Of a DNA stretch of 64,000 bases, positions 14,174 through 61,553 are shown in pieces. A program made the translations under genes and the position numbers. The stretch is taken from the sequence record OL615011; one strand, 5' to 3'. How positions within the stretch are numbered: the first letter of the stretch is position 1; every line of letters begins with the position of its first letter. The notes beneath the pieces are model-generated. The model saw only the letters and a list, made by a program, of their open reading frames with translations. It was not told where the DNA came from and searched no databases. The DNA comes from Shigella phage vB_SboS_Gloob.

Positions 14174-14216
14174 TCCTCGTTATAATTACTCTTACAATAT
14201 ACCGTGGAGATACATT

Positions 14217-15023
14217 ATGAATTTGCCATCATTGCCCAGAACAGAAAAGACATATAAAAGCGACTTTTGGCCTACTGTGATCAAATATCGCGCCTTTACT
14301 GCGGGGCAACAAACTTTATTACTTCAGGTGTCAGATCCGCAAACGCCGATTGAAGAACGCGCGGCCATGATGGAGAGCCTCTTCAGCGAGTGTGTAAATG
14401 CAGGTGCGCCTTTCAGCAAACTGCCAATCGGTGTTGTTGAGGAAGTGTTCATCCGTATGCGCATGATCGCCATCGGCGAATTGATGAAGATTCGCTACAA
14501 GTGCAATAATCAGGTTGAAGAAACGATCGATCTAGGGGATGGTCAAGAAAAGCGCCAGATGGTTCCCTGTGAGCAGGAACTGACTCTACCTATCCCGCTG
14601 AACAATGTAAAATGCATTGCTCAGGACGGCTTCCAGGAGACGTTTGACCTGCCGGGTGGCTATCACCTCAAGATGCGCCAACCTTCCTTCTCGGACGCTA
14701 CGGCGCTGTCTGATGCTGCAAGTGTTGAGATGATGCTGGCCACCTTTATCGACTGCCTGTACGATGATGACGGTCAGGTGTGGAAGGTTGAGAATCCTGA
14801 AGAAATCGGGATCACTCCGGAAGAGGCTACCGAGCGCCGCCGTGTGAAAGAAGCATTTGTTGAGTGGGTGAAGGATAACATCGAATCAGATGTCATCGAC
14901 AGCATTACGAAGAACTTCTTCCACAAAATACCGCGCATCCACTACAAGAGTTCAATCAAGTGTCCGAAGTGTGGTAAGGAACACAAGATCGAATTCAATA
15001 GCATTAATGAAATTTTCATCTAA
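14217..15023 (+). CDS. putative baseplate/virion protein with C-terminal zinc ribbon
   Basis: Start MNLPSLPRT with GGAG RBS; C-terminal CPKCG; immediately upstream of gp5 and gp25. Confidence 0.45.
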   Translation: MNLPSLPRTEKTYKSDFWPTVIKYRAFTAGQQTLLLQVSDPQTPIEERAAMMESLFSECVNAGAPFSKLPIGVVEEVFIRMRMIAIGELMKIRYKCNNQVEETIDLGDGQEKRQMVPCEQELTLPIPLNNVKCIAQDGFQETFDLPGGYHLKMRQPSFSDATALSDAASVEMMLATFIDCLYDDDGQVWKVENPEEIGITPEEATERRRVKEAFVEWVKDNIESDVIDSITKNFFHKIPRIHYKSSIKCPKCGKEHKIEFNSINEIFI

Positions 15024-15172
15024 TGTTTGAAACTGATTTACTATCCTACTTCGTGATGTGTGATGAATTGAAGTTACACGGCTATAGCATATTTGAAATC
15101 AACGAGTCGATGCCGTGGCATCTTGACTTGTTAACCGAAGCCCTCAAGGTCAGGTTGTCTAAGAAACAGTAA
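15023..15172 (+). CDS. small hypothetical protein (49 aa)
   Basis: ATG overlaps upstream stop (TAATG); MFETDLLSYFVMCDEL...; followed directly by terminator. Confidence 0.35.
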   Translation: MFETDLLSYFVMCDELKLHGYSIFEINESMPWHLDLLTEALKVRLSKKQ

Positions 15173-15196
15173 TCCCGCTTCGGCGGGATTTTTATT
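15172..15196 (+). terminator. rho-independent terminator
   Basis: ATCCCGC-TTCG-GCGGGAT hairpin followed by TTTTATT. Confidence 0.6.
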
Positions 15197-15491
15197 GGCT
15201 TAACTGTAAAACAGGTTAACGCGTGCTCTCTTTACCTGAAATTGTTATAATGGGCCTGTTCCTGAGTCATTTGTTGGGGATCGTCTATTTTGAATCAGAT
15301 TGTCAGTAAAATACCATTTTTCAAGGAGTGTTCTGAGGTGTACAGTTATTGCCTCGCTCTTATGCCTCCATGGCATTGGAATGGTGCTGCCTGCATAAGG
15401 CGGTGTGATGAGCGAAGCGAATAGGATCGAATAACAAATAAAATGAACGGAAGCAGAGCTTCCTATAGTATATAAGGCAAAATCCGCTGCG

Positions 15492-15499
15492 CATAAATA
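15492..15499 (+). promoter_or_regulatory. near-consensus late promoter CATAAATA upstream of gp5
   Basis: One mismatch to TATAAATA, 35 nt upstream of gp5 ATG. Confidence 0.3.
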
Positions 15500-15533
15500 C
15501 CTTCAAATCCTTGTTTGACAACCGGAATTCACT

Positions 15534-17141
15534 ATGTTAGACAATATGAGATGGTTTTATGGCACCGTTGAAGATGTCAACGATCCAGACCAAAACGGGC
15601 GCGTCGCCGTCCGCATCTATGGCGTCCACACTGATGACACCGTCCTCCTGCCTACGGATAAACTCCCATGGGCGAAGGTACTGATGCCTGCTTCAAACGC
15701 CTCCTCTGCTGGTTTAGGTTGGTCTCCAACGGGTATCATTCCCGGCACTGAGGTTATGGGGTTCGCCCTTGACGAAGCATACCAGAACCTGCGTATCACT
15801 TGGACTTGGCCTGGGGCAAATCCCACTGATGGGGCAGACACGAATCCACTGGCTCTCGGACAGGTCGTTCAATCGGTAGAACGTCAGGCGTACAACGCCG
15901 TCACTGACGTTCCTGTGAAACAAGAAGACGAACCACAACCAGATCCACAACCACCTGTTGGTGGGTATGATCCTGAAAAATGGATGACCATCGCTCGTGG
16001 TGAGCTGGGTGTCAAGGAGTACGCCGGAAAGTTCAACAACAACCCGCGCATTATAGAATATCACAAGACAACCTCCCTTGGTGCTTCTGAAGATGAAGTG
16101 TCGTGGTGTGCGGCGTTCGTGGGCTGGGTTATGTTGCAGGCTGGATACACGTCTACGCGCTCCGCTCTTGCCCGATCTTACCTTACATGGGGTAGTGCAC
16201 TGTCAGCACCACAATATGGTGCTATCGTAGTCTTCCGGCGCGGTAACAACCCTACATTTGGACACGTGGCGTTTGTACAGAAGTTCGATGCAAACTATGT
16301 CTGGTGTATCGGTGGCAACCAATCCGATTCAGTGAAGGTCAGCCGCTTCAGCCGTTCGTCAGTCCTGGGCTACCGCTGGCCTGGTCCTGCTAACACAGCC
16401 ACAGCCGCGCCTGCGCAGCAGAATGGTAAATGGTCAGAACCTATCCCAGATCGTACTCCAAAGGAACAACCGACTCCGGCTCCTACAGGGCGCGTCCAGG
16501 ATATTGATAACACGGGCGAAACTATGGTTCCGGCAGCGGGTGGCTCCAAGTACCCGTACAACAACGTCATGGCGTCCCGAGCAGGTCACATAATGGAGGT
16601 GGACGACACTCCTGGTGGTGAGCGTCTTCATTGGATGCACATGTCCGGCTCCTACAAACAGATGCTCCCGAACGGCGACGTCGTCAACAAGTCAGTGAAG
16701 GATCATTATGACCTGACCATGTTTGACAAGCGCTATTATGTCGGCGGGGACCACAACCTGACGGTCAAAGGAACTGAAGTTCAGCGCAAGACTGGTGAGG
16801 TCTATCACCTTCACTCCAACAACTACTCAAATGTGGTTGCTGGTACAGCGCTTATGAAGTTCAGCAACCTAGCAGAGATCCAAGCCCAGAATATCCTGCG
16901 CATCATCTGTGAGACTCTGGAAGTTGGTGGAACTCTCAAGGTGCCGAAGATCCTGGCCACTGAGATCATCGCCGACAAACTGTCGGTCGCTCAGACGATT
17001 GATGGCAACATCAAATATGCCGAGGGTGCAGGTCGTGCTTCTTCTCTGTCTGGTGCTACCCCTGCAACCCCATCGGGTCCAGGCGAGATAGATATTAAGG
17101 CAGAATTAAAAGACAATGGTGGTAATTTCGGCACCGAGTAA
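15534..17141 (+). CDS. 5: baseplate hub/cell-puncturing protein gp5 with CHAP/NlpC-P60-type peptidoglycan hydrolase domain
   Basis: 535 aa; N-terminal OB-fold WFYGTVEDVNDPDQNGRVAVRIYGVH as in T4 gp5; central domain with conserved Cys (WCAAFVGW) and His (FGHVAF) instead of a lysozyme domain. Confidence 0.75.
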   Translation: MLDNMRWFYGTVEDVNDPDQNGRVAVRIYGVHTDDTVLLPTDKLPWAKVLMPASNASSAGLGWSPTGIIPGTEVMGFALDEAYQNLRITWTWPGANPTDGADTNPLALGQVVQSVERQAYNAVTDVPVKQEDEPQPDPQPPVGGYDPEKWMTIARGELGVKEYAGKFNNNPRIIEYHKTTSLGASEDEVSWCAAFVGWVMLQAGYTSTRSALARSYLTWGSALSAPQYGAIVVFRRGNNPTFGHVAFVQKFDANYVWCIGGNQSDSVKVSRFSRSSVLGYRWPGPANTATAAPAQQNGKWSEPIPDRTPKEQPTPAPTGRVQDIDNTGETMVPAAGGSKYPYNNVMASRAGHIMEVDDTPGGERLHWMHMSGSYKQMLPNGDVVNKSVKDHYDLTMFDKRYYVGGDHNLTVKGTEVQRKTGEVYHLHSNNYSNVVAGTALMKFSNLAEIQAQNILRIICETLEVGGTLKVPKILATEIIADKLSVAQTIDGNIKYAEGAGRASSLSGATPATPSGPGEIDIKAELKDNGGNFGTE

Positions 17142-17219: not shown

Positions 17220-17600
17220 ATGAAAGAGTACAAAGATGTCGATCTGAAGTTCGGCATGCACCCGGTGACCAAAGATGTCACCATGAAATCAGGCGTATAC
17301 GCTGTCTTGCAATCTGTGCGGAATATCGTCATGTCTTCAGTCGGGGACTGGCCCACTTATCCTGGGATCGGTGCAGGGTTGTATAATCTCCTTGGAGAGA
17401 ACACCACCCCAACGATTCAGGTAGATGTGAAGAACAAAGTTGAAGATGCTATTGCTCTGTATGAACCGCGAGCCGAGGTAGAAGAAGTCACGGTGAGTCT
17501 GTCAGAGGATTACCATTCTCTGGGCGTGACCATCACATTCTATGTGGTCAACAATCCAGATCCAATAACAGACACCGTGTGGTTGAAAAGGACGAATTAG
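17220..17600 (+). CDS. 25: baseplate wedge protein gp25 (GpW/gp25 family)
   Basis: 126 aa; size and adjacency to gp5. Confidence 0.65.
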   Translation: MKEYKDVDLKFGMHPVTKDVTMKSGVYAVLQSVRNIVMSSVGDWPTYPGIGAGLYNLLGENTTPTIQVDVKNKVEDAIALYEPRAEVEEVTVSLSEDYHSLGVTITFYVVNNPDPITDTVWLKRTN

Positions 17601-17947
17601 AATTTCGTCCTGAATGCCGGAGCCACGACTAACATGAAGTGGCTCAATAACCTGAACATCTCTTTACCGTTGAAGTGGTAGAGGATAATCATCGGTCTGA
17701 CATCAACTACCGAACCATCCAGCTTCTTGTTCAACACAAATCTGGAACCGACACTAACCTTCCCACGCTCTTCGTCTCCTGGTTTGTCGTAGACCACGCA
17801 ACTGGTGGCATAACCGATCTGAGATCCATCCTCAGACCGCAATGGTAGCATGTGCCCTTCAGACATCAGATGATGCAGGTTCTGGTATAAACCTTTGTCT
17901 GGTATGGGCACTGCCAGCTGCATGCTCAGCTCTTTGTAATCTTGCAT
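17597..17947 (-). CDS. hypothetical protein
   Basis: 116 aa ORF convergent with gp25. Confidence 0.4.
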   Translation of the reverse strand: MQDYKELSMQLAVPIPDKGLYQNLHHLMSEGHMLPLRSEDGSQIGYATSCVVYDKPGDEERGKVSVGSRFVLNKKLDGSVVDVRPMIILYHFNGKEMFRLLSHFMLVVAPAFRTKF

Positions 17948-17952
17948 GGCGT

Positions 17953-18486
17953 CTACTCCGTCAGGGTGATCACAACCATATTTAAGACTGTGTCGATAGC
18001 TCGGGCTGTTTCCTCTTCATGGAGGGTTTCGGCGCGGAGGTGAACGTCTGTGATGAAATTGTCGATGTGCATTGACGTCAGGTACGGGCGGTGCTGGCTG
18101 ACCGGACGGTTGATCAGTACATAGTTACGCAGTGTGTTGAAGTCCTGCTGAGAGCACCCTGTGGTATCAATACGCAGGAAGCGTTCATTGTGGCTTGTCT
18201 TCAGTTCAGTTACTTTGCCGAGGTAGACCAGAGGTCCATTGCGACCGATACGGAACATAACATCAACAACAGACTTGAAGATTTCGCGTTCAATCAGTGC
18301 GGTGGGTGACCAGCAGATCTCTTCTTTGTCATCGGCGTACAGGGTGTCGATCACCAGAGGGAGTTGAATGTAACCGAAGTTGTGCAGTGGGTTGGTGAGT
18401 ACTTTGTTTGTCATGATATAGTTCCCGCTTTCAATTTGTGGCGAATGCCAATGAATTACTGGGAAGTATAGGGGAGGGCGTTTCAA
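17953..18486 (-). CDS. hypothetical protein
   Basis: ORF; true start possibly MTNKVLT near 18414. Confidence 0.4.
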   Translation of the reverse strand: MKRPPLYFPVIHWHSPQIESGNYIMTNKVLTNPLHNFGYIQLPLVIDTLYADDKEEICWSPTALIEREIFKSVVDVMFRIGRNGPLVYLGKVTELKTSHNERFLRIDTTGCSQQDFNTLRNYVLINRPVSQHRPYLTSMHIDNFITDVHLRAETLHEEETARAIDTVLNMVVITLTE

Positions 18487-18490
18487 AAGT

Positions 18491-18513
18491 AAAGCCCCTC
18501 ATTGAGGGGCTTT
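18491..18513 (-). terminator. terminator hairpin after glutaredoxin gene
   Basis: AAAGCCCCTC-ATT-GAGGGGCTTT. Confidence 0.45.
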
Positions 18514-18519
18514 GGCTTG

Positions 18520-18744
18520 TCAGCGTTTGAGGCTGGCGGCGAGTCCACTAACGTCGGTCACGGTCTGGTCAGCGAGGACGATTACAGGCATCGACATGCG
18601 CTGTTTACCCGTCAACTTCTGAAGTTCTTCCAGCTGGTAGTCTTTGTCCAGCTTGAGGATCTTGTGTTCCAGCCCTTTCATCTTGCACAGATTTTCGGCT
18701 GTTACACACTGAGCGCAACCTTGTTTGGAATAGATCGTAATCAT
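18520..18744 (-). CDS. glutaredoxin/NrdH-like redoxin
   Basis: 74 aa; CxxC active site CAQC; next to nrdB. Confidence 0.7.
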   Translation of the reverse strand: MITIYSKQGCAQCVTAENLCKMKGLEHKILKLDKDYQLEELQKLTGKQRMSMPVIVLADQTVTDVSGLAASLKR

Positions 18745-18753
18745 TTCTCACCT

Positions 18754-60544: not shown

Positions 60545-61213
60545 TTACTCAATCTGTGCGCCGACGAAGTAATTGATCGTCGCGTCGGATGATTGGAAGT
60601 TCACCATCTGCAGCTCAGCGCAGGCACGCAGAGTGTAGTTGCCTTCGATCATCTTCAGGTTAGCAACGTCCAGTGGCATGACGAAGTCCGGCAGCGCGGT
60701 TTCACCCAGCTCAACGGTGTAGTTGTTGGAGTTGTCCAGGGTAGTGGTGGTTGCAACCAGGCGAGTTTTGCCACCCTGAGCAACCAGGCGCACAGTCTTG
60801 TGACCGAGGGTAGAACAGGCGCGGGTCAGTTCTTTCATCTTCTCTGGAGTGATGATCGCTTCAAAGTCGACAGACGGCAGTTCAATGGTGTCAGCCGGAA
60901 CAACAGTGAGTTCTTTAGCAGAACGCCAGAATTGCAGCTGAGAGCTTTCGCCTTTCAACAGGATGTAGTCCTGATGGAATTCGGCTTTACCGCCTTTGAA
61001 GGAAGGCAGGCGCTGGATGGCCAGAAGTTTGGTCAGGTCCAGGATAGGGAACTCAAACGGGAAGTCTTCTTCGATCTGAGCCACGGCGATAACAGTAGAC
61101 GAATCGTTAATGCTGCGCAGCATCTTACCCGGTGTCAGAACGATAGATGGGTTGATGGTCTCAAAGTTGGCCAGCAACTGGAGTGTACGTTCGGAGAGAG
61201 TGATCTCTTGCAT
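60545..61213 (-). CDS. 45: sliding clamp gp45
   Basis: 222 aa; size and N-terminal similarity to T4 gp45; adjacency to gp44/62. Confidence 0.8.
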   Translation of the reverse strand: MQEITLSERTLQLLANFETINPSIVLTPGKMLRSINDSSTVIAVAQIEEDFPFEFPILDLTKLLAIQRLPSFKGGKAEFHQDYILLKGESSQLQFWRSAKELTVVPADTIELPSVDFEAIITPEKMKELTRACSTLGHKTVRLVAQGGKTRLVATTTTLDNSNNYTVELGETALPDFVMPLDVANLKMIEGNYTLRACAELQMVNFQSSDATINYFVGAQIE

Positions 61214-61319
61214 TTATGTATCCTCAAAATATAGTGGGGTTCAAGTCATGTTTGACGCAATCTAGTATCGCTGTGTTGTGCTTATAGAACAAGTGGCAAA
61301 TTGCGCTACGCGTTATTAA

Positions 61320-61337
61320 TAAATGCCTTCGGCATTT
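61320..61337. other. perfect hairpin in AT-rich divergent intergenic region
   Basis: AAATGCC-TTC-GGCATTT within 340-bp non-coding region. Confidence 0.35.
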
Positions 61338-61394
61338 ATGGACTTTATTAAAGATAATAACCTTTATTAATCCTATTCGCTTCGCTCATAAAAC

Positions 61395-61428
61395 AAATAC
61401 TCGTTGTTCGTTAACACTCACAACTCGT
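61395..61428 (+). promoter_or_regulatory. sigma70-like promoter (TTGTTC, 18 nt spacer, TATAAT)
   Basis: Upstream of plus-strand ORF at 61554. Confidence 0.3.
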
Positions 61429-61553
61429 ATAATACCACGCCATTTGTTCAACAGGAAAGCAATTTTTATTCAACAGCAAAATTAATTTATTTGGTCTAAA
61501 CATGCACGCGAAATAATATGTATGTCATGTTAACCAACACACGAGAGTAATAT

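Follow-up and report, generated by a model that had tools for sequence, protein, structure and literature searches.

A predicted NlpC/P60-CHAP cysteine peptidase in place of lysozyme in the gp5-type central spike of Shigella phage vB_SboS_Gloob

Introduction

Does the gp5-type central spike of Shigella phage vB_SboS_Gloob carry a cysteine peptidase instead of a lysozyme, and would a different peptidoglycan bond then be cut during tail penetration? The question arises from an original prediction made from the DNA sequence, which had read a gp5-type OB domain at the N-terminus of a gp5 cell-puncturing protein and, in its central region, a conserved Cys and His pattern typical of CHAP or NlpC/P60-type amidases or peptidases.

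Here we analyze this gene in a 64,000-nt stretch of Gloob DNA (sequence record OL615011; the whole stretch is referred to as the window, and all Gloob coordinates are given in it). We describe the domains of the spike protein, the catalytic residues of its central domain and the distribution of the architecture, and we weigh the possible roles of the enzyme. We also describe conserved non-coding elements, one of which lies directly upstream of the spike gene.

The spike gene and its relatives

The spike protein is encoded by an ATG-initiated ORF of 535 aa, the end coordinate of which takes in the stop codon, and the gene sits among genes for the baseplate hub and wedge:

14214-15023, + strand: gp26-like baseplate hub gene, upstream neighbour (Pfam T4_baseplate, E=6.4e-46; PHROG 150)
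15534-17141, + strand: gene for the gp5-type baseplate central spike, a putative tail-associated peptidoglycan hydrolase, 535 aa
17220-17600, + strand: gp25-like baseplate wedge gene, downstream neighbour (Pfam GPW_gp25, E=6.6e-9; PHROG 261, E=2.6e-33)

In megablast searches of GenBank phages, the spike gene matches Salmonella phages SW16-7 and SP-9-14 along its entire length at 97.6% DNA identity, and is 97.2% identical to SKML-39, 95% identical to Shigella phage Ag3 and ~90% identical to relatives in Escherichia and Enterobacter phages. SKML-39 is classified in Ackermannviridae, Aglimvirinae, Agtrevirus. The window is part of an Ag3/SKML-39-like phage of the ViI-like family (Ackermannviridae), and the ORF encodes the Agtrevirus orthologue of the gp5 central spike.

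Downstream of gp25, gene content varies among these near-identical phages. SKML-39 has a homing endonuclease gene (L001 10963-11763) with two hypothetical genes, which adjoin gp25, on one side and the small nrdB-adjoining gene on the other. Gloob has no space for it at ~17600-18750, where the small nrdB-adjoining gene, a 225-nt ORF at 18520-18744, comes directly after ORFs 17597-17947 and 17953-18486. The homing endonuclease near nrdB is a presence/absence polymorphism between Gloob and SKML-39.

Domain organization of the spike protein

The protein can be divided into three folded blocks, two linkers and a C-terminal tail:

15534-15818, + strand: N-terminal OB-fold domain, aa 1-95 (Gp5_OB; phmmer match to T4 gp5 residues 6-102, E ~6e-15; folded block in the AF2 model)
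15819-15980, + strand: linker 1, aa 96-149, Pro/Glu-rich (aa 96-136 predicted to be disordered, pLDDT <50; columns poorly conserved in the spike alignment)
15981-16379, + strand: predicted TIGR02594/CHAP (NlpC/P60 superfamily) cysteine-peptidase domain, aa 150-282
16107-16109, + strand: codon of the predicted nucleophile Cys192 (invariant in 57 sequences)
16263-16265, + strand: codon of the predicted general base His244 (invariant)
16311-16322, + strand: G-G-N-Q motif, aa 260-263 (invariant columns in two alignments)
16395-16541, + strand: linker 2, aa 288-336, Pro/Thr/Ala-rich (pLDDT ~33; the low-confidence stretch reaches aa 341)
16542-16943, + strand: gp5C-like region, aa 337-470 (aa 337-432 match T4 gp5 residues 385-477, phmmer E=1.4e-14; folded block of pLDDT 66-87 in the monomer model)
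16944-17138, + strand: C-terminal tail, aa 471-535 (a segment that Ackermannviridae conserve, …IKYAEGAGRA…DNGGNF, and to which the monomer model gives low pLDDT)

The N-terminus had been assigned to a gp5-type OB domain on the basis of the segment WFYGTVEDVNDPDQNGRVAVRIYGVH at aa 7-32 (nt 15552-15629), and this assignment is borne out by a Pfam Gp5_OB match (PF06714, aa 35-97, E=3.5e-13) that scores 50.4 bits against a cut-off of 25. The predicted Cys and His motifs, WCAAFVGW (aa 191-198, containing Cys192) and FGHVAF (aa 242-247, containing His244), fall in the central region. This region is matched by Pfam CHAP (PF05257, aa 187-262, E=8.6e-11) over profile positions 4-81 of 81, with 42.6 bits against a gathering score of 26, and by NCBIfam TIGR02594 over its full length (aa 150-282, profile 2-132 of 132, E=5.2e-38), with 130.3 bits against a trusted cut-off of 70.55. 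Judged by these profile scores, the motif matches are not due to chance.

Among PDB sequences, T4 gp5 and the related spike 9F4A align to aa 1-94 and 337-432 only, and the central region has no counterpart to the T4 lysozyme segment. The gp5C-like region is predicted to be the start of a trimeric beta-helix. The tail that follows it is ~70-80 aa longer in Serratia and Erwinia phages, according to the spike alignment.

The full-length AlphaFold (AF2) monomer has a pLDDT of 63.6, with folded blocks at aa 1-95, ~140-287 and ~342-470, and low-confidence parts in the linkers (aa 96-136 and 288-341) and the tail (~aa 472-535). Low overall confidence is expected, since the protein works as a trimer, and the model serves to define domain boundaries only, being silent on how the enzyme packs in the trimer.

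Sequence and predicted fold place the central domain among papain-like cysteine peptidases

The original prediction placed the central region with CHAP/NlpC-P60-type enzymes and apart from the T4 lysozyme fold. This is upheld by the TIGR02594 and CHAP matches, both above their cut-offs, and by the structural matches described below; GH24 and all other lysozyme families are absent from the spike protein in Pfam searches at E<=1.

A model of the domain (aa 140-300) built from a 57-sequence alignment has a mean pLDDT of 89.7 and a pTM of 0.85, and shows a predicted papain-like alpha+beta fold. Its structural matches are NlpC/P60 and CHAP cysteine peptidases, with no lysozyme-type fold among them, and Foldseek returns the same families. 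Below the top matches are Tae3 (10.5), CHAP lysins (LysGH15, 10.4), Tse1 (9.1) and the C51 domain of the phi812 hub (8.2).

Across the 57 homologues, which are 37-96% identical to the domain, residues W191, C192, A193, F195, H244 and G260-G261-N262-Q263 are invariant. In clan CA, the canonical geometry places the Cys at the start of a helix and the His at a beta-strand. The model shows this papain-like arrangement for the predicted pair: Cys192 (model residue 53) opens helix 53-63, while His244 (residue 105) lies at the start of strand 104-112. N262 and Q263 come after the next strand, and the GGNQ motif is a candidate source of the third polar residue or of an oxyanion-hole residue.

In an alignment made with the domain profile, Cys192 and His244 fall on the Cys and His residues of solved enzymes, namely Tae3, CwlO and two Clostridioides difficile hydrolases. 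The aligned Tae3 residues would be Cys23 and His81, reportedly the catalytic pair in Dong et al. (2013). Of the two outcomes that would have spoken against the original prediction, alignment of the domain to a GH24 lysozyme and lack of a Cys-His pair on a structure model, neither was observed. Sequence and model together support placing the domain, as a papain-like cysteine peptidase, in the TIGR02594 subfamily of the NlpC/P60-CHAP superfamily. From the family, it is also reasonable to expect that the peptidoglycan bond cut would differ from that cut by a lysozyme.

Prior reports in the family

The replacement of lysozyme by a cysteine peptidase is correct and has been known for the family since 2011. 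In the CBA120 gp5, Kutter et al. (2011; Virol J 8:430, PMC3184105) described a putative CHAP/TIGR02594 domain at aa 150-282, lying between two regions that resemble T4 gp5 (aa 3-109 and 334-437). In the same year, Hooton et al. (2011) listed the PhiSH19 protein as 'Gp5 OB family & CHAP domain'. One member of the homologue cluster carries the NCBI name 'TIGR02594 family protein'. A 2024 review of Ackermannviridae does not discuss the spike protein.

The spike proteins of CBA120 (a Kuttervirus), Vi01 and PhiSH19 are orthologues of the Gloob protein with the same architecture and matching domain boundaries. The Vi01 cluster is 86% identical to the Gloob spike and differs only in genus (Kuttervirus, compared with Agtrevirus for Gloob) and by this 14% divergence.

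Comparison with T4 gp5 and other peptidase-bearing systems

T4 gp5 (PDB 1K28, 1PDL, 5IV5) and the Gloob spike are homologous in the OB domain and in the start of the beta-helix (E ~1e-14 to 1e-15 each). In both, an enzyme is inserted between these two parts on linkers, and the gene adjoins baseplate genes. The enzyme of T4 gp5 is a lysozyme of family GH24 and cleaves the glycan strand, whereas that of the Gloob spike is of the NlpC/P60-CHAP cysteine peptidase type. The C-terminal 65 aa of the Gloob spike do not align to T4 gp5. Maturation cleavage of T4 gp5, at Ser351/Ala352, is established, and linker 2 matches the cleaved linker of T4 gp5 in position, though the linkers of the two proteins do not align; a similar proteolytic maturation may occur in the Gloob spike.

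The two phages also differ in how the entry enzyme relates to the exit enzyme. In T4, gp5 and the endolysin gpe are both GH24 enzymes, whereas the spike enzyme of Gloob is unrelated to its own endolysin, a muramidase of family PF11860:

23535-24347, - strand: endolysin, PG_binding_1 and N-acetylmuramidase PF11860 (Pfam E=6.4e-59; named 'endolysin' in SKML-39)

The relation between T4 gp5 and gpe is also stated by Kutter et al. (2011; PMC3184105).

Structural precedents for peptidase-bearing tail hubs are available in diffocin CD1368 (PDB 8V3W) and the phi812 hub C51 domain (PDB 9EUF, 9EUM). In these, the enzyme is fused to a gp27-like hub, while that of Gloob is fused to a gp5-like spike. Their targets are Gram-positive, and diffocin additionally has a lytic transglycosylase lobe.

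The superfamily and the Cys-His core of the Gloob domain are shared with the type VI secretion (T6SS) effectors Tae3 and Tse1/Tae1 and with TIGR02594 effectors; TIGR02594 domains have been reported as VgrG-associated. Tae-type effectors are delivered into the Gram-negative periplasm by a contractile machine. They are free cargo with immunity partners and kill the target cell, while the Gloob domain is built into the spike and, by analogy with gp5, would presumably make only a local hole.

Distribution of the fusion and variation of the enzyme slot

The combination of Gp5_OB and CHAP is present in all of the full-length homologues found (23/23), including those of Vi01, Serratia phage 3M and Erwinia phage phiEa2809, and by sequence the spike architecture is conserved across Ackermannviridae. 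The fusion also occurs outside the family, in a 319-aa protein lacking the beta-helix (P0024, L029 8001-8960). It is encoded on a T4-like metagenome contig of 170,684 bp, with genes for gp32, an HMUDK_hel-type protein, PhoH and a B-family polymerase. Next downstream comes gp25, and beyond it a protein of 806 aa that has a weak GH19 match.

Other gp5-like spikes vary in the position and presence of an enzyme. In P0026, a TIGR02594-like domain is located at the C-terminus, after the beta-helix region. P0029 and P0056 carry other hydrolases at the C-terminus, that of P0056 being a Pfam GH46 match. An SxHxxGxAxD-like motif at the C-terminus of P0029 suggests an M15-type peptidase. Several spikes (P0028, P0030-34) contain no enzyme domain, so an enzyme is not obligatory for gp5-like spikes. 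Since the enzyme is central, C-terminal or missing in different gp5-like spikes, the slot is modular.

The nearest free-standing relatives of the domain are 40-57% identical to it and are fused to PG_binding_1, to LysM, or to a GH108 muramidase and PG_binding_3. One close free-standing relative is encoded in a prophage, immediately behind a P2-like tail module, where endolysin genes typically lie.

Predicted role in entry and alternative roles

The best explanation of these findings, which we consider very probable, is that the Gloob spike is the counterpart of T4 gp5, with an OB dock, a beta-helix and a linker-held predicted Cys192/His244 peptidase that opens murein on entry. By analogy with T4 gp5, the N-terminal OB domain would dock the trimer in the baseplate hub, and the C-terminal gp5C-like region would form a trimeric membrane-piercing beta-helix. 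The peptidase would be held between the two by the two flexible linkers, with Cys192 acting as the nucleophile and His244 as the base. Upon tail contraction, the spike would be driven through the outer membrane, carrying the peptidase into the periplasm, where it would open the murein locally by cutting stem-peptide or cross-link bonds and not the glycan strand, allowing the tube to reach the inner membrane. Virion proteomes in the literature contain orthologues of this spike (including Kutter et al. 2011, PMC3184105). For Ackermannviridae phages, our literature search brought up neither a biochemical nor a genetic test of this domain, and no enzymology, mutagenesis or baseplate structure for the spike.

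Characterized relatives of the domain cut the γ-D-Glu-mDAP bond, mDAP-D-Ala cross-links or, in the case of some CHAP domains, the MurNAc-L-Ala amide. From these specificities, a non-glycosidic bond is expected, while the fold does not specify which one. The spike domain could be a peptidoglycan hydrolase with N-acetylmuramoyl-L-alanine amidase activity, which some CHAP domains have, instead of an endopeptidase acting on stem peptides or the links between them; we regard this as unlikely, though it is the best placed of the alternatives.

It is much less probable that the domain is an inert structural or binding module (e.g. a murein anchor of the spike) kept for assembly only. Such a role would fit with the gp5-like spikes that manage without any enzyme, but Cys192, His244 and GGNQ show no variation at all among phage spikes and free-standing enzymes that are just 37-57% identical to the domain, and inactive homologues normally lose their catalytic residues. 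The least credible alternative is that the peptidase acts in the periplasm on something other than murein, perhaps on a different amide bond, as the glutathionylspermidine (Gsp) amidase CHAP members do: the NlpC/P60-CHAP superfamily is catalytically versatile, and Gsp amidase and trypanothione synthetase-amidase are among the weaker structural matches, but the peptidoglycan-binding and GH108 fusions of the closest sequence relatives, together with the prophage lysis-type position of one of them, point to murein as the target.

Conserved non-coding elements

Upstream of gp5, the following features are present:

15023-15172, + strand: 49-aa ORF overlapping the gp26-like stop codon (TAATG)
15171-15190: terminator hairpin after the 49-aa ORF (one compensatory stem pair, T-A to C-G, in the upstream-element alignment)
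15173-15533, + strand: stretch of ~300-340 nt between the terminator and the gp5 ATG, unannotated in almost all records; core at ~15286-15480
15243-15251, + strand: extended -10-like TGTTATAAT, with TATAAT at 15246-15251
15449-15463, + strand: hairpin
15492-15499, + strand: CATAAATA, ~35 nt 5' of the gp5 ATG

The 49-aa ORF is conserved in Kuttervirus and Taipeivirus, is annotated as 'hypothetical protein' in some records and missing in others, and has no Pfam match. Compared with Dickeya phage XF4, which belongs to a different genus, its nucleotide identity is 98.7%. The non-coding stretch is 93.9% identical to that of XF4, compared with 80.5% for the gp26-like gene, 85.2% for gp5 and 79.3% for gp25; against Ag3, it is 99.4% identical, compared with 95.1% for the gp5 CDS. 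By these nucleotide identities, the gp5-upstream stretch is more conserved than the gp26-like, gp5 and gp25 genes.

A comparison of 18 distinct copies of the upstream element from four genera revealed a near-invariant core common to all copies, as are the extended -10-like sequence and the hairpin at 15449-15463. CATAAATA is invariant in the 18 sequences. The late promoter of T4 is TATAAATA, which CATAAATA resembles, making it a candidate late-promoter-like site. According to Kutter et al. (2011; PMC3184105), the late promoter of ViI-like phages was not identified.

A five-helix structure, derived from the same 18 sequences that were used to score it, is 95.5% paired in the 18 copies, compared with 31-50% in controls with slid pairing partners. 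Changes on both sides are seen in five pairs of the structure, reflecting few independent events, and three upstream hairpins have compensatory changes. RNAalifold gives -24.0 kcal/mol for the + strand and -16.0 kcal/mol for the - strand, the + strand folding better. The outer stem proposed by RNAalifold (columns 47-51 with 168-172) is likely an alignment artefact, with hairpin 5 misaligned there.

Several other readings of the element were rejected. Protein coding is unlikely because of 1-2-nt indels in the core, and the ATG of a mini-ORF (MSEANRI…) is ACG in Kuttervirus and Taipeivirus. The CUGAUGA of a hammerhead-like sequence (CUGAUGAG…CGAA) is not conserved between genera, no tRNA or tmRNA was detected in the element, and it has no Rfam match. 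A literature search for Ackermannviridae transcriptomes or sRNAs found nothing relevant. Tentatively, the stretch at ~15243-15466 might give rise to an RNA not yet described for Ackermannviridae, such as an sRNA or a structured leader controlling when the spike and its peptidase are made; we propose this with low confidence.

Conservation throughout the family is also seen in another intergenic region that lacks annotation:

61214-61553, - strand (orientation as for the downstream gene 60545-61213): conserved region of ~340 nt

Its identity is 100% in Ag3, 97.6% in Dickeya phage Ds23CZ, ~80% in Kuttervirus and 73% in Taipeivirus. It has in common with the gp5-upstream element only a 26-nt block, ATGAGCGAAGCGAATAGGAT..AATAA, containing a GCGAAGC mini-hairpin. 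A 17-mer of this block occurs exactly twice in the window, compared with 0.10 occurrences expected. An apparent second full copy of the element, seen as a second place in BLAST, is just this shared block of 20-26 nt.

Implications

Since the enzyme swap was published in 2011, current understanding is unchanged by its presence in Gloob, and it will be no surprise to specialists in T4-like or ViI-like phages. The conserved structured non-coding elements are a more novel lead than the peptidase swap. Many database records for Ackermannviridae use the name 'tail lysozyme' wrongly. The peptidase domain is an uncharacterized, predicted murein hydrolase directed at Gram-negative bacteria, and could be tried as an enzybiotic module. 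The enzyme slot of gp5-type spikes may be filled by a lysozyme, as in T4, by a predicted NlpC/P60-CHAP peptidase, as in Ackermannviridae, or by no enzyme, with the hydrolase placed C-terminally in some relatives, and the enzymes for entry and exit may be unrelated within one phage.
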